Source: an uncultured Rikenellaceae bacterium (lineage in GTDB: Bacteria > Bacteroidota > Bacteroidia > Bacteroidales > VadinHA17). From it: a stretch of DNA of 64,000 nucleotides. Where the stretch lies: the NCBI GenBank assembly GCA_964639725.1, contig CAZXFB010000024.1:1638-65637 (forward strand), given 5' to 3'. The notes beneath the pieces are model-generated. The model was given only the letters and a program-made list of their open reading frames with translations. It made no database searches and was not told the DNA's origin. The position numbers were made by a program, and so were the translations under genes. This document shows positions 4,575 to 53,910 of this stretch, one piece after another. Positions within the stretch are counted from its first letter, which is position 1; the number at the start of each line of letters is the position of its first letter.

Positions 4575-6581
4575 ATGAAAATGAAGCTAATATTTTCGTT
4601 ACTGTTCCTAATAAATACAGTTATTTATTTATCTGCACAGATTCAATATCCAGGCGAATATCCCGGAAAGGCAATGGCAAAAACATTGACTGGAAACAGG
4701 GTAATACTTGAAAATAATCTGATAAAAATGGAATTTGCAGGTGATAAAAACAGAGTTTCAATCATAAGCTTTGAAGATAAAATCACACATGAGGTGTTAA
4801 GCGAGATTAATGCTGCACTTTTTGAGCTGAAACTTACTGATAGCACTATTCTTACTTCAAATGATTTTACCCTTGGGCATTCTCCAGTTATCTCAGATTT
4901 ACCTGTTGATTCACATTCTGAAATCGTGGCGGAAAGAGTGAAGGGAAAAAGATATTCAGCAGATCTTGAAAACCAGAAACTGGGTTTGACCGTTCACTGG
5001 AAAGCAGAACTCAGGGATGGTTCAAATTATATCAGGCAGATATTTTCATTTACCACAAAATACCAGTCAGATATTTCCAGGATTACCCTTTTAAGGCTTC
5101 CTGCTAATTTGCCTGTGAAGAAGGAGGGAACTGTTGATGGTTCCCCAATTACTGTTGGTAAAATGTTCTTTGCTCTGGAATATCCATTGAGTAAAGTGGA
5201 ACTGAAAGATAATTATCTGGTATCGTATCTGCCACGTTTACTTCCTGTTATATCTACAGTATGGGGTACAACTCCGGTCAATCAGTTTCGTCGAGGATTC
5301 CTTTATTATATAGAACGGGAGCGGGCGCACCCCTACAACCAGGTATTACATTATAATTCATGGTATGATATCTCCTGGCATGACAGAAAATTAAATGAAG
5401 CGATATGTCTTGACAGGATCAGGATGTTTGGTGATAGCCTTATAAAAAAGAGAAATGTTCCTTTAAAGGCTTTTCTTTTTGACGATGGATGGGACGATAA
5501 CAAAACCCTCTGGGAGTTTAATTCAGGATTCCCTGATGGTTTTGAAAAATTGAAAACTGAAGCTGAATCATACAAGTCAACAGTAGGAGTCTGGCTGTCG
5601 CCTTTCGGAGGCTATGGGGAAACGAAAAAAGAGCGTCTGGAATATGGAAAGAAGCAGACTCCTCCGTTTGAAACAAATGATAATGGTTTTGCCCTTGACG
5701 GACCTGTATATTTTAAACGATTCAAAGATGTAACCAGCAGTTTCATAAATAAATACGACATCACTATGTTCAAATTTGATGGAGTTGGGGCTGGGAATGG
5801 TGCCGGAATTGCTTACCAGAAAGATATTGAGGCTTTCTTAAAACTTATTACTGAATTAAATGAATTAAAACCGGATCTTTATTTCAGTCTGACTACCGGA
5901 ACATGGGCTTCTCCCTACTGGCTCTTCTATGGTGATAACATATGGCGCGGAGGGGATGATACAAATATGATGGGTGAAGGTTCAAAAAGACAGCAGTGGA
6001 TAACTTATCGCGATGCAGATGTTTATAAAAATGTTGTGAAGGCAGGTCCGCTCTATCCGTTGAACGCCTTAATGACATGTGGAATTTGTATTGCAGATTA
6101 TGGATATCCTGCAGATTTTGATATGAATGACAAGGACATCTCAGATGAAATCTGGTCTTTCTTTGGAACAGGAACAAATCTTCAGGAACTTTATATAAAT
6201 CCGCATAAATTGAATACATCAAACTGGAATTGTCTGGCAGAGGCAAGTCACTGGGCAAAAGAGAATGAGGATATATTGGTCGATGTACACTGGACAGGCG
6301 GCAATCCGGCCAAAGGCGAAATATATGGTTATGCCGCATGGTCACCCCGTAAGGCTACACTGACACTGCGAAATCCATCGAAAGATGAAAAATCGTTTTT
6401 AGTGAATATTGCAGGAATATTCGAGCTCCCTGAATCAATGAAAAGTGAATATCAGTTTTACGATGCCAGGCAAGTGACGTTAAATGCTAAGAAGGAGATT
6501 ATTGCCCAGGGCAGGGTTTTTAACATCATTTTGAAACCATTCGAAGTTAAGGTAATGGATGCTTTCCCGGTCAGACAGTGA
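4575..6581 (+). CDS. Secreted putative glycoside hydrolase (melibiase/alpha-galactosidase-like TIM barrel); exact family uncertain
   Basis: 668 aa with signal peptide MKMKLIFSLLFLINTVIYLSAQ. Motifs LFDDGWDD and FKFDGVG resemble clan GH-D (GH27/36-type) catalytic cores. Confidence 0.45.
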   Translation: MKMKLIFSLLFLINTVIYLSAQIQYPGEYPGKAMAKTLTGNRVILENNLIKMEFAGDKNRVSIISFEDKITHEVLSEINAALFELKLTDSTILTSNDFTLGHSPVISDLPVDSHSEIVAERVKGKRYSADLENQKLGLTVHWKAELRDGSNYIRQIFSFTTKYQSDISRITLLRLPANLPVKKEGTVDGSPITVGKMFFALEYPLSKVELKDNYLVSYLPRLLPVISTVWGTTPVNQFRRGFLYYIERERAHPYNQVLHYNSWYDISWHDRKLNEAICLDRIRMFGDSLIKKRNVPLKAFLFDDGWDDNKTLWEFNSGFPDGFEKLKTEAESYKSTVGVWLSPFGGYGETKKERLEYGKKQTPPFETNDNGFALDGPVYFKRFKDVTSSFINKYDITMFKFDGVGAGNGAGIAYQKDIEAFLKLITELNELKPDLYFSLTTGTWASPYWLFYGDNIWRGGDDTNMMGEGSKRQQWITYRDADVYKNVVKAGPLYPLNALMTCGICIADYGYPADFDMNDKDISDEIWSFFGTGTNLQELYINPHKLNTSNWNCLAEASHWAKENEDILVDVHWTGGNPAKGEIYGYAAWSPRKATLTLRNPSKDEKSFLVNIAGIFELPESMKSEYQFYDARQVTLNAKKEIIAQGRVFNIILKPFEVKVMDAFPVRQ

Positions 6582-6896: not shown

Positions 6897-8921
6897 ATGA
6901 TGGTTTATGAGGGTAGTGAATTAATTGGTCTTATTTTTAAAACAATTGCAGTAATCTTTTTCTCTGGGATATCATCAATACCTTTTGTTCCCGTCAGAAT
7001 CAAACCTGTTATAAGTATTGTCACAGTTCTGCTTGTTGCCCTGATAACAAGTCTTTTAGCTGTTAAAGTCTTTTCCACAGGCGGAATTGATTTTACTCTC
7101 TACTGTGGATCATTCTTTGGCGAAATCCCAATGAGGATTGATGCATTATCAGCCTGGTTTATTCTGATTATTAATTTCACTGCTGCAACCGGTGTGTTAT
7201 ACGGTGCGGGTTACATGAGAGCATCAGATGTTCAGCCATCACTTATTACATTCCATTGGATAATTTATATAATATTTCATTTATCCATGCTATTTGTATG
7301 TATGGTTCAGCATAGTATAGCATTTATTGTAGTATGGGAAATCATGTCTTTGTCCTCGCTGCTCCTGGTATTATTTGATTATACTAATCCAAAAGTACTT
7401 AAAGCAGGTATTAACTATCTTGTACAAATGCATCTGAGTGTAGTTCTTCTCACTATAGCATTTATCTGGGTATATTTCAGAACAGGGACATTTGATTTTA
7501 AAGGTATAGGTGAGTTCTTTGATTCAAATGTCAATATCTGGGTATTTCTGATATTTTTTACCGGGTTTGGACTCAAGGCCGGATTTATCAGCCTGCATAC
7601 CTGGCTACCTCTTGCTCATCCGGCAGCTCCCTCTCATATTTCAGGAGTTATGTCAGGAGTTATTGTTAAGATGGGGATTTATGGCATTTTTCGTATAATC
7701 ACTTTTTTGAAAACAGATTTCCTGGTTTTGGGAGAGATTATTGTCACAATATCATTATTAACAGGCTTGTTTGGCATTATGAATGCTGCAGTACACAGAG
7801 ATTTCAAACGTATGCTTGCCTACTGTACAATAGAAAATATCGGGATCATTGGTATTGGCACAGGATTGGGACTTATTGGCATATCCACAGGACAAAACCT
7901 GCTTACTTTCTTTGGATTCGGAGGAGCACTGCTGCATGTACTTAACCATTCATTATTTAAGTCCTTGCTCTTCTTCTCTGCAGGTTCAGTTTATAAGCAG
8001 ACGCATACCCGCGATATGGACAAATTGGGAGGACTTATAAAAAACATGCCTAAGACTGCAATACTCTTTCTGACAGGTGCAATAGCTATCGGAGGGATTC
8101 CACCTCTGAACGGATTTATCTCAGAATTTTTAATTTATTGCGGAATATTAAAAGGAATAAACTCTGTTGGTATTGCTCTGGTCACATTAATGGTGCTTAC
8201 TTTTGCTGGGATGAGTCTGATTGGTGGGATTTCGATACTTACCTTTACAAAAACATTTGGAACAATATTTCTTGGGACTCCCCGGCAAAAATTGAAACAT
8301 GACCCTGTTGAAGTCCCTTTATTGATGCTAATACCTCAGTACATAATTATTGTTGTAATGTTATTGATTGCCTTTTTACCTGGCTATTTTGTAAACCTCA
8401 TCGGATCAATATTGAATTACAATATCTTTCCTAACATTGGTTATGTGTCTGTTGATCTGACAAGTTACCTGGAAATATTGAGAAGTATCAGTCTGGCTTC
8501 GGTCATATTCATATTTTTGCTAGGCCTTATGTTTACTGTCAGATGGATTCTGATGAAAGGAAAAGAAAATCAGCATGCTTCCACCTGGGGATGTGGATAT
8601 CTGGCACCAAATGAAAGAATGCAATATACTGGTAAATCGTTTTCTAAATCTTTTGGAAAACTTCTTAATTTTATGCTCATAGAGAAGAAAGGGTACGAGG
8701 AAATTAAAAAAAGTGAAACTTTTCCTGTTTCACGACAATACCGTTCCTTTTATCTCGATTTTTTTGAATTCAGGATTATTGATCCGGTTATACAATTGAT
8801 CAACCGGTTTATTAATCTGTTTCAGTTTATACAAAATGGCAAGATCCAGGCTTATGTCATTTATGGTATTGCTTTTATAATTACGATATTCATTGGAACA
8901 GTTTTAAATTTGTGGCATTGA
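6897..8921 (+). CDS. hyfB: HyfB/HycC/NuoL-like antiporter-type membrane subunit, copy 1
   Basis: 674 aa and polytopic. It carries the hallmark WLPLAHPAAPSHISGVMSGVIVKMGIYG, LAYCTIENIGII and the HyfB-type C-terminal extension with TWGCGY. Confidence 0.85.
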   Translation: MMVYEGSELIGLIFKTIAVIFFSGISSIPFVPVRIKPVISIVTVLLVALITSLLAVKVFSTGGIDFTLYCGSFFGEIPMRIDALSAWFILIINFTAATGVLYGAGYMRASDVQPSLITFHWIIYIIFHLSMLFVCMVQHSIAFIVVWEIMSLSSLLLVLFDYTNPKVLKAGINYLVQMHLSVVLLTIAFIWVYFRTGTFDFKGIGEFFDSNVNIWVFLIFFTGFGLKAGFISLHTWLPLAHPAAPSHISGVMSGVIVKMGIYGIFRIITFLKTDFLVLGEIIVTISLLTGLFGIMNAAVHRDFKRMLAYCTIENIGIIGIGTGLGLIGISTGQNLLTFFGFGGALLHVLNHSLFKSLLFFSAGSVYKQTHTRDMDKLGGLIKNMPKTAILFLTGAIAIGGIPPLNGFISEFLIYCGILKGINSVGIALVTLMVLTFAGMSLIGGISILTFTKTFGTIFLGTPRQKLKHDPVEVPLLMLIPQYIIIVVMLLIAFLPGYFVNLIGSILNYNIFPNIGYVSVDLTSYLEILRSISLASVIFIFLLGLMFTVRWILMKGKENQHASTWGCGYLAPNERMQYTGKSFSKSFGKLLNFMLIEKKGYEEIKKSETFPVSRQYRSFYLDFFEFRIIDPVIQLINRFINLFQFIQNGKIQAYVIYGIAFIITIFIGTVLNLWH

Positions 8922-10939
8922 TAAATATACTATTAGCCATATTAATAACAGCAGTAATTGGAATTTTGTCTCTAAAATCGAAAGGCAAAGGGATTATTAC
9001 TTTGATAACTGTTATAGTTACCGGACTGATTACAAGCTTTATAGCAGCAGGATCTCTATTCGGTGAAAGTTATGAAGTACTTCTTTCAGGAACAATTCTT
9101 TTTGGAAAAGTACTCATAAAAATAGATGCACTTTCTGCCTGGTTTATCCTGACTATCAATTTCACAATGATAACGGGAGTTATTTACGGGTTTAATTATA
9201 TGAAAAAATATATCAACAGGAAGAGTGACATCACTCTTCACTGTATAGCCTATTTACTTGTTCAGTTCTCTCTATTAGGTATATGTTCGGTTCAGAATGG
9301 ATTCGTTTTTCTGATATTATGGGAATTAATGGCCATTTCAAACTTTATTCTTGTGATTTTTGAGCACCATAAACCAGAAACAATAAAGGCAGGCCTGAAC
9401 TATATTGTCCAGTCGCATATAAGTATTGTTTTTATTATGATTGGTTTCATCTATGTTGCATATAAAACCGGCAATTACGGATTTGACGCAATTGTCCATT
9501 TCACTGGTAATCAGTCAACTCTTGCAGGAACTGCACTCTTTCTTTGTTTTTTTATTGGTTTTGCCATCAAATCAGGGTTTGTTCCTTTTCATACGTGGCT
9601 TCCATATGCCCATCCGGCAGCACCTTCACATGTTTCAGGAATTATGTCAGGTGTTGTGATAAAAATAGGTATTTATGGAATACTCAGAATGTTATTATTA
9701 ATTAAAACGGATTATACTACAATAGGTTATATTATTCTTTTTATATCTGTTTTTACAGGAATTTATGGTGTTATGCTTGCTACAATTCAGCACGATCTGA
9801 AAAAATTGCTTGCATATCACAGTATTGAAAATATCGGGATAATTGGAATCGGAATCGGAATTGGTTGCATCGGATTGGGTTCTGTAAATAAATGGATGGC
9901 AATACTGGGTTTCACAGGTGCTTTGCTTCATACACTTAATCACTCATTATTTAAATCATTGCTCTTTTATAGTGCAGGAAATGTTTTACAGAAGGCGCAT
10001 ACAGTAAATATTGAACGACTAGGTGGAATAATAAAGCGAATGCCGCAAACTGCTTTTTTGTTCCTGATCGCTGCCATTGCTATATGCGGTCTGCCTCCGT
10101 TAAACGGATTTATTTCAGAATTCATGATATTCGGCGGTTTGTATAACTGGCTTTACAGTGCCAGTCTGATTTCACTTATTGCAACTGTTTTTTCTCTGGC
10201 AGGTATGGTGTTGATTGGTGGTCTGGCATTATTATGCTTCACGAAAGCCTTCAGTATAGTATTTCTTGGAATACCGCGTTCTGATATTCATAATGAGATA
10301 TCTGAAACAGGTTTCTGGCAACTCCTGCCTATGTATATTACAGCCGCCCTGATGATAATCATTGGATTATTCCCATCATTTTTTATTGAGGCCTTACAGC
10401 GTCCTGTTAATCTTTTCACACATCATATCATCTTTAATCTTAATCTGATCAAAGTCGGGGCAATTGATTCACTTCAGGTGATTAGCTGGTTATTTACCGG
10501 ATTGATCGCAATAATTTTATCAGTTTTGGGATTAAGAAAGTATATCACAAGTAATAAGGTTGTTGAGACAGGTACTACCTGGAGCTGTGGTTATCCTGTC
10601 ACGGGTAGCAAACTGCAATATTCTGCCAGTTCTTTTGTCCGTAGTTATGCTAAACTTGCCAAACCACTTTTAGATATTGAAAAAAAAGAAGTAGAGATAA
10701 ATGAAGTTTTTCCATCGGAAAAAAAGTATGAAACAGATACCTATGACAAGATTGAAAGGATCTTCATTGATAAACCTATTAAACTTATAACCAGGATAGC
10801 TGATTTATTCCTTTTTCTCCAGAACGGGAAACTGCAGATTTATATTTTATACGGGATTATTTTTATCACGTCAGTAATTTGTCTGCCTCTAATAGCAGAA
10901 AAGGTCTTAACAATTCTTCATTTTTTAAATAACCTGTAA
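8912..10939 (+). CDS. hyfB: HyfB/HycC/NuoL-like antiporter-type membrane subunit, copy 2 (tandem paralog)
   Basis: 675 aa with WLPYAHPAAPSHVSGIMSGVVIKIGIYG, LAYHSIENIGII and C-terminal TWSCGY. A GTG start overlaps the upstream stop by 10 nt. Confidence 0.85.
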   Translation: MALINILLAILITAVIGILSLKSKGKGIITLITVIVTGLITSFIAAGSLFGESYEVLLSGTILFGKVLIKIDALSAWFILTINFTMITGVIYGFNYMKKYINRKSDITLHCIAYLLVQFSLLGICSVQNGFVFLILWELMAISNFILVIFEHHKPETIKAGLNYIVQSHISIVFIMIGFIYVAYKTGNYGFDAIVHFTGNQSTLAGTALFLCFFIGFAIKSGFVPFHTWLPYAHPAAPSHVSGIMSGVVIKIGIYGILRMLLLIKTDYTTIGYIILFISVFTGIYGVMLATIQHDLKKLLAYHSIENIGIIGIGIGIGCIGLGSVNKWMAILGFTGALLHTLNHSLFKSLLFYSAGNVLQKAHTVNIERLGGIIKRMPQTAFLFLIAAIAICGLPPLNGFISEFMIFGGLYNWLYSASLISLIATVFSLAGMVLIGGLALLCFTKAFSIVFLGIPRSDIHNEISETGFWQLLPMYITAALMIIIGLFPSFFIEALQRPVNLFTHHIIFNLNLIKVGAIDSLQVISWLFTGLIAIILSVLGLRKYITSNKVVETGTTWSCGYPVTGSKLQYSASSFVRSYAKLAKPLLDIEKKEVEINEVFPSEKKYETDTYDKIERIFIDKPIKLITRIADLFLFLQNGKLQIYILYGIIFITSVICLPLIAEKVLTILHFLNNL

Positions 10940-10940
10940 C

Positions 10941-11846
10941 ATGTTAAGTATAATATTAATACTGTTCACCAGCCTTCTTTTCACGGGAATTATTATACGC
11001 ACTAAAAGCGTAGCTTCAGGACGAAAAGGGCCAGGTCTGCTCCAGCCTGTCAAAGATGTGATCAGGTTATTTAGAAAAGGTGCTGTATATAGTGAAACAA
11101 CAAGTATTATTTTCAGGATTGCCTCTGTCATTTATTTTTCTTCAGTTCTTATGGCTTGCACAGTTATTCCTTTTGGCTCCTCAAGAGGTCTGGTAAGTTT
11201 TGACGGCGATTTTATTTTTTTCGCCTATATCCTTGCTTTAGGAAAATTCTTTAGCATAATTGGTGCAATGGATACGGGAAGCAGTTTTGAGGGAATGGGA
11301 GCAAGCCGTGAAGCATTATACTCGATGTTCGCTGAACCTGCTTTTTTTATTCTGATCGGTTCATTTGCATTAATGACAGGAAAGACATCATTTTATGATA
11401 TTTTTTCAACTTTACATCTTGGATCATCAATAACTTACACATTGGGAGGTCTGGCTGCATTCGTACTTATAATGATTACAATGATCGAAAACAGCAGGAT
11501 GCCGGTTGACGATCCTAAAACTCATCTCGAATTAACAATGATCCATGAAGTTATGATTCTCGATAACAGTGGATTCGATCTTGGATTAATACTATCGGCA
11601 GGTTACTTGAAGTTTGCAATGTATGGCGCTATCATTGCGGATTTTTTTATTGGTGGTCTGTCATTGGTTTTTGCTATACCTCTGTTCATTTTGATCCAGG
11701 TATTATTTGCAATAGTTATAGGATTGATAGAATCTTTTATGGCAAGGTTCAGGATGAATCATAATCCGCAATTTATTTTAGCATTGTCATCGGTAAGCTT
11801 CTTAATATTTCTTGGGGTACTGCTGGTTTTGGAAAAATTTGTTTAA
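10941..11846 (+). CDS. hyfC: HyfC/HycD/NuoH-like membrane subunit
   Basis: 301 aa. The N-terminus …RTKSVASGRKGPGLLQPVKDVIRLFRKG… matches the NuoH/HycD signature. It starts 1 nt after the upstream stop. Confidence 0.85.
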   Translation: MLSIILILFTSLLFTGIIIRTKSVASGRKGPGLLQPVKDVIRLFRKGAVYSETTSIIFRIASVIYFSSVLMACTVIPFGSSRGLVSFDGDFIFFAYILALGKFFSIIGAMDTGSSFEGMGASREALYSMFAEPAFFILIGSFALMTGKTSFYDIFSTLHLGSSITYTLGGLAAFVLIMITMIENSRMPVDDPKTHLELTMIHEVMILDNSGFDLGLILSAGYLKFAMYGAIIADFFIGGLSLVFAIPLFILIQVLFAIVIGLIESFMARFRMNHNPQFILALSSVSFLIFLGVLLVLEKFV

Positions 11847-11857
11847 ATATCTGAAAA

Positions 11858-12490
11858 ATGACAAACGTATTATTGATAATATTCATTATTAGTCTTTTAT
11901 ATGTATCAATTGCAAACAGAATTATTACTTATGTAAGAATTCTTGCCCTTCAGGGTTTTATCCTTTTTGGAGTAACATTTCTGCAGTTGCAGGATATTCA
12001 GACCTGGAACCTTGTTCTTATTCTGCTTGAAACTATTGTTTTCAAAGCTGTTGCTGTTCCTATGTTTCTGGGTTATCTGATCAAACGGAACAGAATAACT
12101 CGTGAAACGGAACCATATTTGCCTCACTTTATCTCTCTGATCATTATTACCATGATAGTCGTGATAACAGTATTACTGGCAAATTCAATTCAGGATACCC
12201 ACCTTGATAAAATATTTTTCATTGTGTCATTGTCAACTCTCTTTACCGGCCTCTATTTCATCTCATCAAGGAAAAAGATCATCACTCATGTTATGGGCTA
12301 TCTTATGATTGAAAATGGAGTGTTTATACTTTCCCTGGCTGTCGGAAACGAAATGCCAGGACTTGTGAACCTGGGTATCATGCTGGATGTTTTCGCGAGT
12401 GTATTGATATTGGGCATCTTCCTGAATAAGATAGGAGATGTTTTCAAAGATGTGGATGTTGACCAGCTGAGTAATTTAAAAGATTATTAA
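11858..12490 (+). CDS. hyfE: HyfE-like small membrane subunit (hydrogenase-4 component E family)
   Basis: 210 aa with about 6-7 TM helices. Size and operon position between the HyfC-like and HyfF-like genes match HyfE. Confidence 0.7.
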   Translation: MTNVLLIIFIISLLYVSIANRIITYVRILALQGFILFGVTFLQLQDIQTWNLVLILLETIVFKAVAVPMFLGYLIKRNRITRETEPYLPHFISLIIITMIVVITVLLANSIQDTHLDKIFFIVSLSTLFTGLYFISSRKKIITHVMGYLMIENGVFILSLAVGNEMPGLVNLGIMLDVFASVLILGIFLNKIGDVFKDVDVDQLSNLKDY

Positions 12491-12499
12491 ACACTTTAA

Positions 12500-13930
12500 A
12501 TGATGACTGGAATTTATCTAATAGGTGCTTTTCTGATTGCAGGATTACTTTTTCTTAACCGTAATAACATGGTTAATAATATTCTTGTGATCAGCTTTGG
12601 CATTCTTCAGACAGGTTTTACACTTTATGCCTGTAACAATTATAATAGTCGTGTACTTGAATATTTTACTTTCGATTCACTAGGATTACTACTTCTGATA
12701 ACGTTGAGCATTATTACCATTCCTGCTCTGCTCCACAGTTACCTCTACATTAAGCGTCATGATGAAACACCACAGTCGAGAGCTATTTATTTTTCGGCAA
12801 TGGTTATTCTTATTGCTTCAATTACAGCCGCTTACCTTGCTAATCATATTGCAGTCATCTGGATTTTTACAGAAATGACTACGTTATCTGCTTCGATGTT
12901 AATTTACCATCACCGTAATAAACTTGCCCTTGAGGGAACATGGAAGTATGTGTTTATTTGTGCCATAAGCATAACTTTTGTATTTATTGGAATCCTTTTC
13001 CTGAGTCTCTCACTTCAGCATGCCGGTTCAGATGATCTCTCATTCAGTAACCTTATGGCATACAAGGATAAGCTAAACCCATTCTGGCTCAGACTGGCAT
13101 TCCTCTTTATCTTCACCGGATTTACTGCAAAACTGGGATTAGTCCCTATGTATACTGCAGGGATTGATGCCAAGGATAAAGCACCTGCACCTGCAGGAGC
13201 TTTAATGGCCAGTGTCCTCATGAACCTTGGCTTTGTCGGGATATTCAGGTTTTATGCTGTTATTGCACATACCTCGCTATTTCACTGGGCTAACCTGATC
13301 ATCTTTATTGCCGCTTTCCTTTCAATATTTGTAGCAACTGTTTATATGACCAGGGTTACTAATATAAAAAGGATGTTTGCTTATTCGGGAATTGAACATA
13401 TGGGAATTGTAATGCTTGGAATCGCAGCGGGAGGAGTGGGTTATTATGCTGCAGTTCTACATATAGTGTTGCATGCCTTCATAAAGTCAAGTCTGTTTTT
13501 TCAGTTCAACCAGTTATACAGAACTTTCCAAAGTAAGAGTATTCATCATGTTGGTAATTATTTCAAATATAATCCTGCAGGTGCGATTGTATTATTATTA
13601 GGATTTGTAAGCGCAACTGCAATGCCTCCTTCCGGATTATTTGTAAGTGAGTTCCTTATATTCAGATCACTCTTTGAAGGAAACTATATAATCCTCCTGT
13701 TGGTCGTTCTGTTATTATTGACAATTGTTATCTGGGCTTTTGGAAAGAATATACTCAAGATACTGTTTCTTCCTGTTTCCGGTCTGGACGAAACAAAAAT
13801 TCCAAAAATAAGTCCATGGGAATCACTGACTCAATATCTATTGTTGTTCACAGCTATCTGGTTGGGACTTAATCCTCCTCCTGTTTTTGTCCGGTTAATC
13901 CAGGATGCAGTAAGAATTTTACCAAATTAA
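12500..13930 (+). CDS. hyfF: HyfF/HyfD/NuoN-like antiporter-type membrane subunit
   Basis: 476 aa and polytopic, with MFAYSGIEHMGIVMLGIAAGG and the LHAFIKSSLFF motifs of Mrp/Nuo antiporter-like subunits. Confidence 0.8.
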   Translation: MMTGIYLIGAFLIAGLLFLNRNNMVNNILVISFGILQTGFTLYACNNYNSRVLEYFTFDSLGLLLLITLSIITIPALLHSYLYIKRHDETPQSRAIYFSAMVILIASITAAYLANHIAVIWIFTEMTTLSASMLIYHHRNKLALEGTWKYVFICAISITFVFIGILFLSLSLQHAGSDDLSFSNLMAYKDKLNPFWLRLAFLFIFTGFTAKLGLVPMYTAGIDAKDKAPAPAGALMASVLMNLGFVGIFRFYAVIAHTSLFHWANLIIFIAAFLSIFVATVYMTRVTNIKRMFAYSGIEHMGIVMLGIAAGGVGYYAAVLHIVLHAFIKSSLFFQFNQLYRTFQSKSIHHVGNYFKYNPAGAIVLLLGFVSATAMPPSGLFVSEFLIFRSLFEGNYIILLLVVLLLLTIVIWAFGKNILKILFLPVSGLDETKIPKISPWESLTQYLLLFTAIWLGLNPPPVFVRLIQDAVRILPN

Positions 13931-13931
13931 T

Positions 13932-15431
13932 ATGAGCTATATTAAAATATTTAATCAACAATCCATTCGGCTAAATAAAATTCCGGAGATGGATTATGAT
14001 GTATTTTTTGAAACCAATACATCCTTAATACAGGATCATCCGGAAAGGCATTGTATCATGTATTTTGGTTACAGTGATAAAGAAATGATACATCTTATTT
14101 GTTGTATTGCAGATGATACAGAGCATAATATTCTGGTTTCTTCATCAGTTGTCAAAAGAGATTCCATGCTTAATGCTTTCTCTGCAATAAATCTTTCATT
14201 TGAGAAGTTTGAAAGGGAGATACACGAAAACTTTGGTATATCATATAATGATCATCCATGGCTGAAACCTGTTCGTTACAGTGAAAACAGGACAGAAAAA
14301 TCAGATTTAATCTCTGATTATCCATTTTTCAGTATTGCCAGTGAAGAACTGCATGAAGTGGGAGTAGGGCCGGTTCATGCCGGTATAATTGAACCAGGAC
14401 ATTTCAGGTTTGTTTGTAACGGAGAGCAGATTCTTCATCTTGAAATTCAGTTAGGTTATCAGCATAGAGGAATTGAACAATTATTTCTTGAAAAGAAAAA
14501 ACTAATCCAGCGTGTAGTTTTGGCTGAATCAATCGCCGGAGATAGCGTGATCGGGCATGCATCTGCATTTGCCTATCTGTGGGAGGCTCTTTCCGGTACT
14601 ATTCCCGGACAAGAAATTCTTTATTCAAGAACACTTGCCCAGGAGATTGAAAGAATTGCTATACACACAGGTGATTTGAGTGCAATATGTACCGATGTTG
14701 CTTACCAGCTTGGAAGTTCAGTGTTCGGAAGACTAAGGACACCTGTCATTAATTTCTTTCAGGAATGGTGTGGTAACCGTTTATCCAAGGGATTAATCCG
14801 TGCCGGTTACAATCCATATCCATTTAACAAAATACTTGCTGAAAGACTTAATGAAGTACTTAATGCCTTTGAACCTGATTTTGTTGAAATGAATAGTGAA
14901 CTTTCAAGATTGCCAAGTTCATTATCAAGGTTTGAGAGGACAGGAACTCTCACCTATGATCAGTTATTATCTGTTGGGACTGTTGGAATGTCAGCAAGAA
15001 TGAATTCTCTAAACAGGGATATCAGAATATCTCACCCGTATGGCATATATCAGGAGTTTGGTCACAATCCTGTAATTAAGCACCATGGTGATGTTTATTC
15101 CCGTGTGCAGATAAGAAAAGAGGAAGTAATTCAGTCTATAGGTTATATCAGGCAGATGCTTAATCATATTCCTGATAAAGAAAATACTAATGATCACTCA
15201 CTTAGGCTTGTGCCTGATTCTTTTGCTATCTCCCTCACTGAAGGATGGAGAGGCGAGATATGCCATGCAGCAATAACTGACAGCAATGGTGAACTGCTTA
15301 TATATAAGATTAAGGATCCTTCCTTCCATAACTGGCTTGCTTTGGCATTATCAGTGAGGAATAATGAAATCTCTGATTTTCCAGTTATTAATAAAAGTTT
15401 TGATTTGTCATATTGCGGACACGATCTGTAA
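13932..15431 (+). CDS. hyfG: HycE/HyfG-like NuoC-NuoD fusion (large-subunit homolog) lacking the [NiFe] cysteine ligands
   Basis: 499 aa with a NuoC-like FEKFEREIHENFGISYNDHP and a NuoD/large-subunit-like VGVGPVHAGIIEPGHFRF. The L1 position reads LAESIAGDSVIGHASAFAY, where hydrogenases have …R.CG.C…H. The C-terminus reads SFDLSYCGHDL-stop, where hydrogenases have …DPC..C..R/H. Confidence 0.8.
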   Translation: MSYIKIFNQQSIRLNKIPEMDYDVFFETNTSLIQDHPERHCIMYFGYSDKEMIHLICCIADDTEHNILVSSSVVKRDSMLNAFSAINLSFEKFEREIHENFGISYNDHPWLKPVRYSENRTEKSDLISDYPFFSIASEELHEVGVGPVHAGIIEPGHFRFVCNGEQILHLEIQLGYQHRGIEQLFLEKKKLIQRVVLAESIAGDSVIGHASAFAYLWEALSGTIPGQEILYSRTLAQEIERIAIHTGDLSAICTDVAYQLGSSVFGRLRTPVINFFQEWCGNRLSKGLIRAGYNPYPFNKILAERLNEVLNAFEPDFVEMNSELSRLPSSLSRFERTGTLTYDQLLSVGTVGMSARMNSLNRDIRISHPYGIYQEFGHNPVIKHHGDVYSRVQIRKEEVIQSIGYIRQMLNHIPDKENTNDHSLRLVPDSFAISLTEGWRGEICHAAITDSNGELLIYKIKDPSFHNWLALALSVRNNEISDFPVINKSFDLSYCGHDL

Positions 15432-15448
15432 AACAAAAATTGTCAACA

Positions 15449-16198
15449 ATGTTAAGAACCCTTCAAATAATGTATCATCAGGGAAAACAATATATTCCTG
15501 ACCTGACAAATGCCAAAGTTCCTGGCATTTTCAGGGGACGACCTGAGATAAGTTCCGGAAAAATTGATGAAAAGTTACTGGTTGATATTTGTCCGAATGA
15601 TGCAATTGCTTCTGATCCGGTAAGGATTGATCTGGGCAGATGTGCCTTCTGTGGTGAATGTTCAAGGTGCTTTCCGGAAAAGATACATTTTACTACGGAT
15701 TACAGATTATCTTCAAACGAGAGGGAAAGGTTGATTATTACTGAAGGTATCTTTATGCCTGTAAGTTTAAACCCCGATCTTATCAGAAAAGAGATCCGCA
15801 AGCTTTTCAGTGGTTCACTCAAACTAAGACAGGTTTCTGCAGGAGGAGATAACAGTTGCGAACTTGAACTAAATGCCTGTGGAAATGTCAATTTTGATAT
15901 GGGACGCTATGGTATTGAATTTGTGGCATCACCGCGGCATGCTGACGGAATTGTTATAACAGGACCAATCTCAAAAAACATGGCAGAGCCTTTGCAGATG
16001 ACTTATGATGCCACACCTTCACCCAAAATAATTATACTCGCAGGAACCGATGCAATTAGCGGAGGTATATTTGACGGAACTCCTGCAATAAACAGAAAGT
16101 TCATCAATCTAAATAAAATAGATCTTTATATACCCGGAAATCCTGTGCACCCGCTGACTTTCATCAACGGAGTCATGGATTTGCTGGGGATCAAGTAG
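15449..16198 (+). CDS. hyfI: HycG/HyfI/NuoB-like small-subunit homolog fused to a degenerate ferredoxin-like (HycF/HyfH/NuoI-like) N-terminal domain
   Basis: The likely ATG at 15449 is 17 nt after the upstream stop; the track TTG at 15413 overlaps the previous gene. The NuoB core is FVASPRHADGIVITGP. The cluster positions read VSAGGDNSCELE, AGTDAISGGIF and IPGNPVHP. The N-terminal part carries ICPNDAI … CAFCGECSRCFP. Confidence 0.75.
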   Translation: MLRTLQIMYHQGKQYIPDLTNAKVPGIFRGRPEISSGKIDEKLLVDICPNDAIASDPVRIDLGRCAFCGECSRCFPEKIHFTTDYRLSSNERERLIITEGIFMPVSLNPDLIRKEIRKLFSGSLKLRQVSAGGDNSCELELNACGNVNFDMGRYGIEFVASPRHADGIVITGPISKNMAEPLQMTYDATPSPKIIILAGTDAISGGIFDGTPAINRKFINLNKIDLYIPGNPVHPLTFINGVMDLLGIK

Positions 16199-50736: not shown

Positions 50737-52281
50737 TTAGGAATACCAGCCTCTTTCTCTGCTGCCTATACCTTTAAGAATTTCACTGGCTGTATTTACA
50801 TTTTCAATAACCTGGAAATCAAACATACCTACGCAGATAAAGTCAGCACCATTTTCAAATGCATAACGGAATCCATCTTTAGGTGTAATAGCGCCGGCAG
50901 CAAGAACTTTAAAAGCGATCCATGGTTTATTTACTCCCTTCATATACTCAATAGTCTTAGAGGGGAAAAGATCCCATATATTGTCGTGATTCTTATTATG
51001 ATCATCTGAATAAGGTCCGATAACACTGTATTCCTCACGATTGGCCTCTGGGTGAGCCGACCAGTATTTATCATGATGCAAAGTCTTTACATAAAAATCA
51101 GCAGGGAGCCCTTCTCTTTCACAAGCCTTAATGGTCTCAATTGAATGAGCCCCCATACCTGCCATTAAACCTTGTTTTTTTATATGATCAATTGCTTTAA
51201 AAAGTTCATCAAATTTGCCATTCATGCAGAATGAGTCACCAACATTTCCCTGGATGTAAACTGCTGTGGCACCACTATCAACAGCTACTTTTATATCTGA
51301 GAAGAAATCTTTTTCAGGTAATATTGCCTGGCATATTGATTGCATATTGCTGTTATATACTTTTTTATATTTGTTGAAAACAGGATAATACCGGGTGACC
51401 ATAAAGTTAGTATTAATACCTGCCTGCTCTGCTAGATAATAAGTTTCTATAATCTTCTTATCATTATTATATGCTTTAAAGAGTGTGTCAGCATATATCA
51501 GGTCCCGGGCATGCGACCATCCTCCGATAAGATTACAACCCATGATCATCTTGGTGACATTAAGGTTCCCGAGTTTACCCTGGGGCAGTTTTCCGGAAAG
51601 ATCTTCCAATCCTTTGTAATCTACTTTTATAGTTGCACCTGATATAGTGTCTGTAGCCGGTTCCGACAGGTGTTTAATAAAGGCACCGGAAAAAATTGCG
51701 AGAACAGGTACTCCTGCTAATCCCTTCAATAATTCCCTTCTTCCGTTACTCTCCGGAACATCAGGTTTATCAGTCATCTCTTCACCCCCTTGTGCAGCAA
51801 TCTTCTTTTTCTTCTTTCTTAATAAATCGAGTCCGAAAAACTGACCAGATCCGGTAATTGCGAGAAATGCAAGTGCAAATAGTTCAATAAGGTTTTTATT
51901 TACTACCAAATAATTGCCTTCAGAAGGAGTTCCGAAACTGAAATCACTAAAAGGAGGATATGCTACATAATATAAGGCCAGAAGTGCTACACCGCTCCAC
52001 GAGGCAAACCTGGTGAAGAGTCCAAGTATTAGCGCAAGACCAATTAGAATGAGTCCGAAAGTATTTGCATTATCAATAATCCACATGGATGTGTCACCAG
52101 ATGCCATCAGTCGGAAGAGATCCCCAAAAATCCACCTAGAGCCCTCAAGATAGGCTTTGGCTGTCCATGTAGTATTAACCAGTTTGCTCATCCCTTCAAA
52201 GAGGAAATGCCATCCTATAACTATTCTAAGCATGGCAAGTAACCATGACGCAAATTTGTTTTTAATAAAAATTGAACCCAT
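50737..52281 (-). CDS. Fusion protein: N-terminal DoxX/DoxD-like membrane domain, Lys-rich linker, internal Tat-like/TM segment and an unassigned ~310-aa domain
   Basis: 514 aa. The DoxX-like part is LLAMLRIVIGWHFLFEGMSKL… with 4 TM helices. It is followed by LRKKKKKIAAQ and RRELLKGLAGVPVLAIFSGAF, then a soluble domain (KLGNLNVTKMIMGCNLIGGWSHARDL … GADFICVGMFDF). Confidence 0.6.
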   Translation of the reverse strand: MGSIFIKNKFASWLLAMLRIVIGWHFLFEGMSKLVNTTWTAKAYLEGSRWIFGDLFRLMASGDTSMWIIDNANTFGLILIGLALILGLFTRFASWSGVALLALYYVAYPPFSDFSFGTPSEGNYLVVNKNLIELFALAFLAITGSGQFFGLDLLRKKKKKIAAQGGEEMTDKPDVPESNGRRELLKGLAGVPVLAIFSGAFIKHLSEPATDTISGATIKVDYKGLEDLSGKLPQGKLGNLNVTKMIMGCNLIGGWSHARDLIYADTLFKAYNNDKKIIETYYLAEQAGINTNFMVTRYYPVFNKYKKVYNSNMQSICQAILPEKDFFSDIKVAVDSGATAVYIQGNVGDSFCMNGKFDELFKAIDHIKKQGLMAGMGAHSIETIKACEREGLPADFYVKTLHHDKYWSAHPEANREEYSVIGPYSDDHNKNHDNIWDLFPSKTIEYMKGVNKPWIAFKVLAAGAITPKDGFRYAFENGADFICVGMFDFQVIENVNTASEILKGIGSRERGWYS

Positions 52282-52410: not shown

Positions 52411-53910
52411 TTAATAGAGGTATCTGTGACATTCAGAGCAATTAGCTTCCTTCCAGGCAGTTCCAATATCAACAGGATGTTGAAATTCAAGTGTATCCCT
52501 AACGTTGGTAAACTGCATCATCCCTGATTTACCCTGTCCTACAATTGTATGGCATAAGTTACAGTTACGGGTTATACTCTTTCCTGTTTCGGTTTTAAAT
52601 GCATCATTGTGACATCTGAAACATCCCTCTGACTCAAGATGTCCTATGTGATCGGGATATACATCATATGTTACCTTCATACCGGGGAAACTGTTCTGGC
52701 TATATGTTTTCTGAATTGCTGAAACAGCATTGTCTATTAATCCGGTATTTTTAGAATAAAATGCATAATGTCCGGTTTTATAGAAACTATTAATCTGGTC
52801 TTTTATCGAAATTAAAGCTGAGTCTCTGTCCCGGAAAGTCTGTTTTAATACATCCATCGATACTTTTTTAATGAAGGGTATGTTTTTTGACACCTCGCCG
52901 GTAAGCATAGCTTTATCAAAATATACCGGAGGGGAACTATAGTTATGTGACGGCCGGTTATGACAATCTATGCAATCCATCGTTCTTGTCTTAACTGTTG
53001 CTATAATGCTGTCTTCAATCGGATTATCAGGATTTCTGTAGGTAAATACCTCTCCGGTTCCCTTGTTTGTATACTTCACAAATGTTATGTTTTCCCGTTT
53101 GTCATTATCTGAGATATACTCGATATTAACTGAAGGATTTATGTGCCAGTGGATTCCCTCTTTTAACCCCATTCCTGTATATTCTGGCCCGGTCTTCATC
53201 TGTAGCATTATATCCCATTCGGAGTTAAGTGAATCGGTAAGGAAATACTTATTGGTTTCGAGTGTTCTTGCATAGAATTTCTGTGGCCAGTGACATTTCT
53301 CGCATGTTTCTCTGGCAGGACGAAGATCATGAAGAGGAGTCTCTATCGGTTTTGGATAAGTTTTTGTGAGTACTGCGTAAACCTGGTGCAAACCTGACAA
53401 TTTTGATTTAACATACCATGATGCCCCGGAACCGACATGACATTCCACACATGAAACATTTGCATGTGGTGAATTCTGATAGGCAGTATATTCGGGCTCC
53501 ATTACTTTATGGCATAGAGTTCCGCAAAATTCTACCGATTCAGTGAGGTGGAATGCTTCAAAACTTCCGTAGGTTGATAAAAATAACACAATAATTGTCA
53601 CAATTGTGAAAATTATAAAAGCATTTCTGTGCCTTGGATCATTCAGATCTATAACAGGCATCTGCTTTTTTTCAATCTCGGAAGATCTCTGTATTCTCCT
53701 TCTTGAGATGATCATCCCCAATGGAATCATAATCAGGCCCAACAGTAAGAATCCGGGAAGGATTATATAAATAAAGAGGCCAAGATTAGTGTTGCTTTTC
53801 TCGAATAGTGATGAAAAAATGAACAATACAATAATCAGAATCAGATTTATTGATGCAATTATCGAACCGATTATTGTGATCCAGTTTCTTGAGGAGGGTG
53901 GTAATTTCAT
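52411..53910 (-). CDS. Membrane-anchored NapC/NirT-like multiheme cytochrome c (seven heme motifs)
   Basis: 499 aa with hydrophobic segments in the first ~115 aa consistent with three TM helices (residues ~11-33, ~44-69, ~97-113). The NapC/NirT-like segment is ESVEFCGTLCHKVMEPEY…SCVECHV. Further motifs are CEKCH, CIDCH, CFRCH, CNLCH and CSECH. Confidence 0.8.
   Translation of the reverse strand: MKLPPSSRNWITIIGSIIASINLILIIVLFIFSSLFEKSNTNLGLFIYIILPGFLLLGLIMIPLGMIISRRRIQRSSEIEKKQMPVIDLNDPRHRNAFIIFTIVTIIVLFLSTYGSFEAFHLTESVEFCGTLCHKVMEPEYTAYQNSPHANVSCVECHVGSGASWYVKSKLSGLHQVYAVLTKTYPKPIETPLHDLRPARETCEKCHWPQKFYARTLETNKYFLTDSLNSEWDIMLQMKTGPEYTGMGLKEGIHWHINPSVNIEYISDNDKRENITFVKYTNKGTGEVFTYRNPDNPIEDSIIATVKTRTMDCIDCHNRPSHNYSSPPVYFDKAMLTGEVSKNIPFIKKVSMDVLKQTFRDRDSALISIKDQINSFYKTGHYAFYSKNTGLIDNAVSAIQKTYSQNSFPGMKVTYDVYPDHIGHLESEGCFRCHNDAFKTETGKSITRNCNLCHTIVGQGKSGMMQFTNVRDTLEFQHPVDIGTAWKEANCSECHRYLY

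Follow-up and report, generated by a model that had tools for sequence, protein, structure and literature searches.

The stretch of DNA analysed here, which we call the window, comprises 64,000 nucleotides from an uncultured Rikenellaceae bacterium (assembly GCA_964639725.1, contig CAZXFB010000024.1, positions 1,638 to 65,637). It carries seven closely spaced genes, all in the same orientation (6897-16198) and in the order ehrA-A'-B-C-D-L-S, that we assign to the Ehr family (energy-converting, or Ech-, hydrogenase-related complexes). This order is kept in at least 60 of 80 related loci, while the flanking genes vary. Our focus is on the sixth gene, ehrL (13932..15431, forward strand, ATG start), which encodes a 499-residue large subunit that fuses NuoC- and NuoD-like parts and is without [NiFe] ligands, and on the small-subunit gene that follows it, ehrS (15449..16198, forward strand). 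EhrS has 249 residues, with an N-terminal single-cluster ferredoxin-like domain and a NuoB-like domain (Pfam Oxidored_q6, E = 1.9e-19). Its most likely start is the ATG at 15449, given that the alignments with 76 orthologs begin at residue 1; the open reading frame (ORF) as called mechanically opens at a TTG at 15413.

EhrL is a NuoC-NuoD fusion of the HycE type, because its Pfam and NCBIfam matches, its sequence match to HycE and the fold of its model all lead to that assignment. The protein matches Pfam Complex1_49kDa (E = 6.9e-32), and residues 40-116 give a borderline match to Complex1_30kDa (22.1 bits, with a cut-off of 22.5). The NCBIfam matches, to NuoD, NuoCD, FpoD and NuoC, are all sub-threshold (NuoC_fam, E = 1.7e-5), and the scores against the NuoD equivalogs are below the cut-offs (139 bits versus 360 for NF004739, and 118 versus 459 for TIGR01962). 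The closest solved structure by sequence is Escherichia coli HycE (7z0s_E, E = 2e-29), followed by MbhL, Nqo4 and NuoCD fusions. A first AlphaFold2 model, built from a shallow alignment, was poor (predicted local distance difference test, pLDDT, of 55.8). A second model reached a pLDDT of 77.5 and a predicted template modelling (TM) score of 0.83, and its top fold match is again HycE (TM score 0.78). The EPGHFRF loop, which is of the hydrogenase type, and the arginine of the PRG motif are kept. An initial annotation, made by reading the window's letters, had claimed intact NuoC-like and NuoD/HycE-like fold signatures in this ORF, and the profile, sequence and fold matches agree with it.

The fold has been kept without the metal site. 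We read the ligand positions of EhrL from a HMMER alignment to 7z0s_E and confirmed the residues by translation; the 7z0s_E chain is 12 residues longer than native HycE, and its positions 253, 256, 543 and 546 correspond to native C241, C244, C531 and C534. In the N-terminal motif LAESIAGDSVIGH stands opposite LSDRVCGICGFAH, and in the C-terminal motif SFDLSYC stands opposite SLDPCYS. All four [NiFe]-ligating cysteines are replaced, with A202, S205, S493 and G496 of EhrL opposite C241, C244, C531 and C534 of HycE. The former N-terminal ligand motif (LAESIAGDSVIGHASAFAY, residues 197-215, 14520..14576, forward strand) has A202 and S205 where the cysteines would be; G203, D204 and H209 within it are invariant, the first two also across distant Ehr. 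The former C-terminal ligand motif (SFDLSYCGHDL-stop, residues 489-499, 15396..15431, forward strand) has S493 and G496 for cysteine, and the end of the protein, N487-K488-S489...S493-Y494-x-G496-x-D498-L499, is invariant in both Ehr subclades examined. The initial annotation had called these four replacements, along with one cysteine displaced by a single position, which is C495, and no realignment puts cysteines back at the ligand positions. We considered the displaced C495 as a substitute ligand and ruled it out, as only 49 of 81 sequences have cysteine there, with serine in 25 and alanine in six.

The quinone site of complex I is missing as well. When EhrL is aligned with Nqo4 of T. thermophilus (2fug_4), I153 falls opposite His38 and G203 opposite Tyr87, so that both quinone-site residues are absent; I153 and G203 are invariant in the family. 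Measured against group 4 [NiFe]-hydrogenases, EhrL has the fold but has lost the cysteines of RxCGxCxxxH and DPCxxCxx(H/R). Because the four [NiFe] ligands and both quinone-site residues are missing, EhrL is, as judged from its sequence, neither a hydrogenase nor a NuoD. The HycE and Nqo4 alignments therefore bear out two further claims of the annotation, that glycine occupies the position of the complex I tyrosine and that the site matches neither a hydrogenase nor a canonical NuoD.

The C-terminus calls for a more qualified answer. The protease HycI removes a 32-residue C-terminal peptide from HycE. The last residue of EhrL, L499, lies opposite chain residue 549, which is native HycE R537, and HycE runs on for 32 residues beyond it (550-581). 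That the ORF stops where HycI would cut, and has no maturation tail, is thus correct, but the loss of the tail is unlinked to the loss of the cysteines. The five closest cysteine-bearing representatives from the database search described below (P0203, P0208, P0231, P0250 and P0267), which have CxxC...CxxC motifs, end in ...C[TLC]D[RL]-stop and have no tail either. Since these nearest relatives are also tail-less, the missing maturation tail is a trait of the whole branch that does not follow from the loss of the metal site.

The replacement residues are strongly conserved. In the 120 closest database homologs (75-80% identity), position 202 is alanine or serine, position 205 is serine in 119 and cysteine in one, position 493 is serine, position 496 is glycine, and every sequence ends in ...GHDL. 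Across 80 species-level genomes (61-79% identity), nearly all of them Bacteroidota (Bacteroidales, Prolixibacteraceae, Paludibacter, Lentimicrobiaceae, Chitinophagales and Saprospirales), alanine, threonine or serine is found at 202, threonine or serine at 205, serine at 493 and glycine at 496. An exhaustive search of 1.84 billion cluster representatives (clusters at 50% identity, E ≤ 1e-3) recovered 4280 clusters. About 140 of the best 150 (31-47% identity) are without the cysteines and share the signature [AS]GD[ST]...H plus NKSF[ND]LSY[CSA]G[HNF]DL-stop; CxxC...CxxC motifs occur in only five of these 150. The ratio of non-synonymous to synonymous substitution rates (dN/dS) of EhrL against its closest orthologs is 0.06-0.10, with dS near saturation, and the whole ehr operon is under strong purifying selection.

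These features identify EhrL, by sequence criteria, as the large subunit of an Ehr complex. The naming of the family is said to go back to Coppi in 2005 and Marreiros in 2013. EhrL is homologous to the large subunits of group 4 hydrogenases and does not have the [NiFe]-binding CxxC motifs. Its operon has the make-up ehrABCDLS with no NuoEFG-type module, the sole deviation being a duplicated ehrA. The signature GD[ST] plus LSYxGxDL-stop recurs in loci of Nitrospira, Verrucomicrobia, Saganbacteria, Desulfotomaculum, Mycobacteriales and Geobacteraceae; relatedness to these taxa was judged by the signature they share in profile-based scans. Ehr have been named in an overlapping set of taxa, with Geobacteraceae matching at the family level (PMC10284858, PMC6688271, PMC6349859, PMC3569383, PMC7894505). 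In the literature Ehr are described as relatives of group 4 hydrogenases that have no CxxC motifs and whose function is unknown (PMC10284858, PMC6349859, PMC6688271, PMC4758237, PMC7894505), and the ehrABCDLS operon as encoding NuoL/HyfB-, NuoH-, HyfE- and HyfF-like subunits followed by the large and small subunits (PMC6688271, PMC7894505). HydDB deliberately leaves Ehr out as homologs that do not metabolise H2 (PMC5037454). The cysteine-less large subunit is therefore a defining trait of a known family and not a new kind of protein.

What sets the window and its relatives apart within this family is the small subunit. The N-terminal part of EhrS gives weak matches to a truncated ferredoxin domain of the NuoI/HycF type, and the closest solved structure for EhrS is HycG (7z0s_G). 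Its ferredoxin-type motif CP...CxxCxxC (C48, C65, C68 and C71; 15590..15661, forward strand) provides one complete [4Fe-4S] ligand set. We assessed conservation in 77 sequences, namely the window protein and 76 orthologs: these four cysteines are invariant in all 77, and in nearly all related loci, and a fifth cysteine of the domain, C74, is not conserved. The ligand positions of the proximal [4Fe-4S] cluster in the NuoB-like domain, located by alignment to MbhJ, HycG and Nqo6, read D134, C137, D201 and N231 (15848..16141, forward strand). Three of four cysteines are gone, to aspartate, aspartate and asparagine, and the second is kept. D134 and N231 are present in 77/77 sequences, D201 in 76/77 and C137 in 70/77. 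More widely in Bacteroidota the four positions read D-x-D/E-N/A, the second of them being variable, in loci that include ones labelled Alistipes, Rikenellaceae, Saprospiraceae and Flavobacteriales as well as an Ancylomarina isolate. Because at most two acidic positions are conserved, a proximal cluster site in the Bacteroidota EhrS does not appear plausible from these alignments.

This loss looks like a derived event inside Bacteroidota. All four cysteines (CCCC) are kept in 73 of 80 distant EhrS. Ehr of Nitrospira, Verrucomicrobia and actinobacteria have the full set, and so do the Geobacter-type Ehr. The Geobacter-type EhrS, which here come from Geomonas, Desulfuromonadales, Verrucomicrobia, Planctomycetes and Spirochaetes loci, have CCCC in 31 of 31 complete sequences and, in two truncated ones, at every readable position. 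Two metagenome-assembled genomes of Bacteroidota (loci L189 and L200) still have CCCC. Elsewhere cluster cysteines appear to have been lost independently, in a single Verrucomicrobia locus (L232) and in L106, L107, L121, L128 and L137, which belong to a clade labelled Candidate Phyla Radiation. A Bacteroidota-wide Ehr variant that is also without the proximal Fe-S cluster is the new part of our results, although it may already have been reported, as literature searches for EhrS and EhrL are swamped by unrelated terms.

We looked for cysteines or histidines that might take the place of the lost ligands. In EhrL, C41, C57, C58 and C253 (14052-14054, 14100-14105, 14688-14690) are near-invariant in the window's clade and rare in Geobacter-type Ehr. 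A relocated Fe-S site at these cysteines, replacing the proximal cluster, is not supported: L189 has all of them together with a CCCC small subunit, and the Alistipes-type loci L164-L166 and the Verrucomicrobia locus L232 have lost the small-subunit cysteines without having these. His234 of EhrS, in an NPxHP motif, was likewise set aside as a clade-specific new metal ligand, since GCPxHP is also found in Geobacter-type EhrS that have the cluster. A further pair of EhrL cysteines, C280 (14769-14771) and C495 (15414-15416), is common to Geobacter-type Ehr and tends to be lost jointly in Bacteroidota (37 sequences with both, 9 and 12 with one or the other, 23 with neither; Fisher p = 3e-5, without phylogenetic correction). 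It is possible that these two form a disulfide or a joint ligand pair.

The membrane arm, by comparison, is more strongly conserved than L and S. The first gene, ehrA-1 (6897..8921, forward strand), encodes a HyfB/NuoL-like antiporter-type subunit of 674 residues (Pfam Proton_antipo_M, E = 2.9e-51) whose top NCBIfam match is hydrogenase 4 subunit B, under its cut-off. Glu148 of transmembrane helix (TM) 5, Lys227 of TM7 and Glu410 of TM12 are invariant in 60 orthologs. A second HyfB/NuoL-like subunit of 675 residues is encoded by ehrA-2 (8912..10939, forward strand, GTG start; Proton_antipo_M, E = 2.7e-55), which overlaps ehrA-1 by 10 nt; the two are about 43-47% identical, and Glu138, Lys220 and Glu403 of the second are invariant. 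The NuoH/HycD-like membrane subunit (ehrB, 10941..11846, forward strand, 301 residues; Pfam NADHdh, E = 1.8e-34) has HycD as its closest solved structure (7z0s_D, E = 1e-24), and its acidic motif IENSRMPvDDPKTHLELTmIHE is almost fully invariant in 64 orthologs. The product of ehrC (11858..12490, forward strand, 210 residues) is a HyfE-like membrane subunit with a NuoK-like C-terminal part (NCBIfam HyfE, the hydrogenase 4 membrane subunit, E = 5.8e-21; Pfam Oxidored_q2, E = 3.7e-5); it is 93-96% identical in the closest orthologs, and the glutamate of its IENG motif is invariant. The last membrane gene, ehrD (12500..13930, forward strand), encodes a HyfF/NuoM/N-like antiporter-type subunit of 476 residues (Proton_antipo_M, E = 8.8e-43) with PDB matches to MbsH, MbhH and NuoM, in which Glu125, Lys211 and Glu384 are invariant in 73 orthologs. 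The charged residues of the ion path are thus invariant in all three antiporter-like subunits and in the NuoH- and HyfE-like subunits. All matches of the operon to Hyf/Hyc-like partners are below the NCBIfam equivalog cut-offs.

Some features of the locus differ among orthologs. The number of HyfB-like copies ranges from one to three; L035 has a second A-A-B-C-D set directly 3' of ehrS, L003 an inverted partial copy upstream, and two Nitrospirota loci have a tandem pair of Ehr operons. Variants of these kinds were noted in L044, L004, L007, L019, L035, L003, L157 and L158. In the window 17 nt separate ehrL from ehrS, against 100-580 nt in about 15 of 76 orthologous loci (including L037, 11501-12080; L023, 11501-11801; L067, L051, L013 and L027). 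In L037 the gap contains a 115-residue ORF that by eye resembles the four-helix-bundle proteins of the '23S rRNA intervening sequence' type, and in L023 no convincing ORF. In 12 of 73 long loci (for example in L013, 2107-2809, reverse strand), a divergent gene upstream of ehrA encodes a regulator of the Crp/Fnr family (cNMP_binding plus HTH_Crp_2), so that some lineages may place the operon under redox or anaerobic control; the window has no such gene. No conserved partner gene, whether for a formate dehydrogenase, a NuoEF-like protein or hyp, was found beside the operon in the 73 long loci. Directly upstream of the operon in the window (4575-6581, forward strand) is a gene for a 668-residue protein with an N-terminal hydrophobic stretch and no Pfam match at E ≤ 0.01, which is not kept beside the operon in other loci. 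Scans of the operon for sigma-70 promoters and for terminators returned 50 and 12 sites, close to the 40.4 ± 6.4 and 6.3 ± 2.5 sites in shuffled sequence. Elsewhere in the window are genes for a 499-residue multihaem cytochrome c (52411-53910, reverse strand; NapC/NirT N-terminal region, cytochrome c3/c7 matches) and, adjoining it, a 514-residue protein with a DoxX match (50737-52281, reverse strand). These two might form a membrane electron-transfer pair, encoded by the genome that also has the Ehr operon.

What might such a complex do? In hydrogenases and complex I, electrons from the distal cluster reach the pocket only by way of the proximal cluster. Since the ligands of that cluster are gone, the pocket in the Bacteroidota clade is most likely not fed with electrons. 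The residues around it have nevertheless been kept: whether or not an Ehr has the proximal cluster, E154, G203, D204, H209, N487-K488-S489, S493, Y494, G496 and D498 do not vary. The reading we favour, and to which we would give about an even chance, is that the complex is an Mrp-like ion translocator. It would still move H+ or Na+, and the cap formed by L and S, no longer working as an electron-fed catalytic site, would act as a module for conformational coupling or gating. The remaining EhrS cluster would be structural or would serve as a redox sensor. The remodelled pocket (E154, G203-D204, H209, R440, N487-K488-S489, S493-Y494, G496 and D498) may then have been retained as a set of loops contacting the NuoH-like subunit and not as a metal site. 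A further step is more tentative, and we hold it to be less likely than not. The Bacteroidota clade, which includes loci labelled as gut Alistipes and Rikenellaceae, may be a redox-independent relative of complex I that has lost the whole electron wire to the pocket, both [NiFe] site and proximal cluster, and kept the cap and the ion arm under strong selection; the cap might then be a ligand- or redox-gated coupling device, or a non-redox catalyst, for the Mrp-like translocator.

Several points weigh against the ion translocator with a gating cap. To our knowledge, neither transport nor redox activity of an Ehr has been measured so far. Aspartate ligates Fe-S clusters in other proteins, and an unconventional cofactor at D134 and D201 is possible. 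The four ferredoxin-type cysteines of EhrS are invariant, as would be expected of a functioning module for electron input no less than of a structural relic. Equal conservation of the pocket with and without the proximal cluster could mean that its chemistry is unchanged and that it is fed in some other way. The second EhrL model has a pLDDT below 50 in the very segments that form the pocket (117-179 and 480-499), and the function of Ehr is stated to be unknown (PMC10284858).

The strongest alternative is a redox-driven ion pump, the kind of mechanism generally put forward for Ehr. Such a pump would pass electrons from ferredoxin or another donor to the N-terminal cluster of EhrS and on to an unknown substrate, reduced in or near the L pocket, with ion translocation as the outcome. 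The invariant ferredoxin-type cysteines and the pocket residues, invariant whether or not the proximal cluster is present, are consistent with this; redox coupling has been proposed for Ehr (PMC6349859), and Ehr subunits of Geobacter go up on formate (PMC7894505). It must nonetheless contend with the loss of the proximal-cluster ligands, where conservation across the clade is limited to two acidic positions, with the textbook geometry in which the proximal cluster is the sole link between the distal cluster and the pocket, and with 73 long loci in which no partner oxidoreductase gene is conserved beside the operon. We regard a redox pump as possible but unlikely.

Ion-gradient-driven chemistry of a non-redox kind is more doubtful still. 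Here the EhrL pocket would bind a small substrate and the antiporter-like subunits would power a vectorial reaction, by analogy with CO2 hydration by the Cup proteins of NDH-1 or by DabAB. This would account for a conserved polar pocket (E154, D204, H209, S493, Y494 and D498) that persists despite the loss of the surrounding redox ligands, next to intact ion machinery. The case is one of analogy, however: the Pfam and NCBIfam matches include no carbonic-anhydrase-like or other catalytic motif, and no substrate-related genes are conserved nearby in the 73 long loci. We think it improbable.

The HycE-like fold, the Hyf-like partners, the EPGHFRF loop and the arginine of the PRG motif would suit an active [NiFe] hydrogenase, or a quinone reductase of the complex I type, that uses unconventional ligands. 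Such an enzyme is very hard to reconcile with the absence of cysteine from all four Ni/Fe ligand positions, a C495 that is not conserved, isoleucine and glycine opposite His38 and Tyr87 of Nqo4, and the lost proximal-cluster ligands, and HydDB treats Ehr as non-H2-metabolising (PMC5037454); we give it next to no credence. Least probable of all is a decaying remnant of a hydrogenase operon, or the isolated degenerate allele among ordinary CxxC orthologs that the initial annotation had named as an outcome that would overturn it: metal ligands are indeed lost in two subunits, but well over 100 species-level genomes have the ORFs intact and in unchanged order, dN/dS is 0.1 or less, and the replacement and ion-path residues are invariant, all of which refutes it.

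Ehr are widespread, with more than 4000 protein clusters at 50% identity, stand at the evolutionary junction of membrane-bound hydrogenases and complex I, and have been without an assigned function for about twenty years. A clade without the proximal cluster narrows the hypotheses for that function. If this clade still moves ions, its conserved pocket and loops must have a role that does not involve electron delivery, and such a role, if true, would bear on how the Q-module is coupled to the antiporter arm in complex I. There is also a practical side. Public records label EhrL orthologs 'Ni,Fe-hydrogenase III large subunit', 'formate hydrogenlyase subunit 5', 'NADH-quinone oxidoreductase subunit C' or 'NADH dehydrogenase subunit'. 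For a protein with neither a metal site nor a quinone site these labels are misleading, and they would wrongly credit Bacteroidota, gut taxa included, with H2 metabolism.

Comparison with known systems places the window most closely beside the Geobacter-type Ehr. Both have the order A-B-C-D-L-S, a cysteine-less L with [AS]GD[ST] and NKSFxLSYxGxDL-stop, an EhrS with an N-terminal single-cluster ferredoxin domain and a GxPxHP motif, and the L-subunit cysteines C162, C280, C444 and C495 in common. They differ in that the Geobacter type keeps the proximal CCCC where the window's clade has D/C/D/N, and in that the window has two HyfB-like subunits and its clade the extra conserved L cysteines C41, C57, C58 and C253. 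Ehr have also been reported in Candidate Phyla Radiation bacteria (PMC7304191). These too have a cysteine-less L, and in loci labelled Daviesbacteria or Saccharibacteria (L106 and L128) the small subunit has also lost cluster cysteines (T/C/D/D and D/C/G/D); their small subunit, however, lies upstream and has no ferredoxin domain, and their L is only about 36% identical to that of the window.

Further afield, the formate hydrogenlyase and hydrogenase 4 of E. coli provide the top sequence matches for L (7z0s_E), S (7z0s_G) and B (7z0s_D), with 7z0s_E also the top fold match for L, and they share with the window the NuoC-NuoD fusion and the Hyf-like membrane set. HycE has C241, C244, C531 and C534 and a cleaved 32-residue tail, and HycG has four cluster cysteines, whereas the window has neither; HycF is a separate two-cluster protein and formate hydrogenlyase includes a formate dehydrogenase, neither of which applies to the window operon. 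The Q-module of complex I (NuoB, NuoC, NuoD and NuoH) is homologous in fold and in module architecture, and its large subunit likewise stops where EhrL does and is without a [NiFe] site. It differs in that His38 and Tyr87 are isoleucine and glycine in EhrL, in that the ligands of cluster N2 are absent from the window's complex, and in that the Nuo equivalog scores are far under their cut-offs. The Mrp Na+/H+ antiporter, finally, also has several antiporter-like subunits of the MrpA/D type with the conserved Glu/Lys pattern and, on the reading we prefer, would resemble the Bacteroidota complex in having no electron-fed catalytic site. Pfam and NCBIfam searches of the operon gave no equivalents of MrpB, C, E, F or G, and we do not count it as an Mrp. 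Mrp has no NuoB-, NuoD- or NuoH-like subunits, whereas all seven ORFs of the window operon map to families of the Hyf/Nuo type, those three included.

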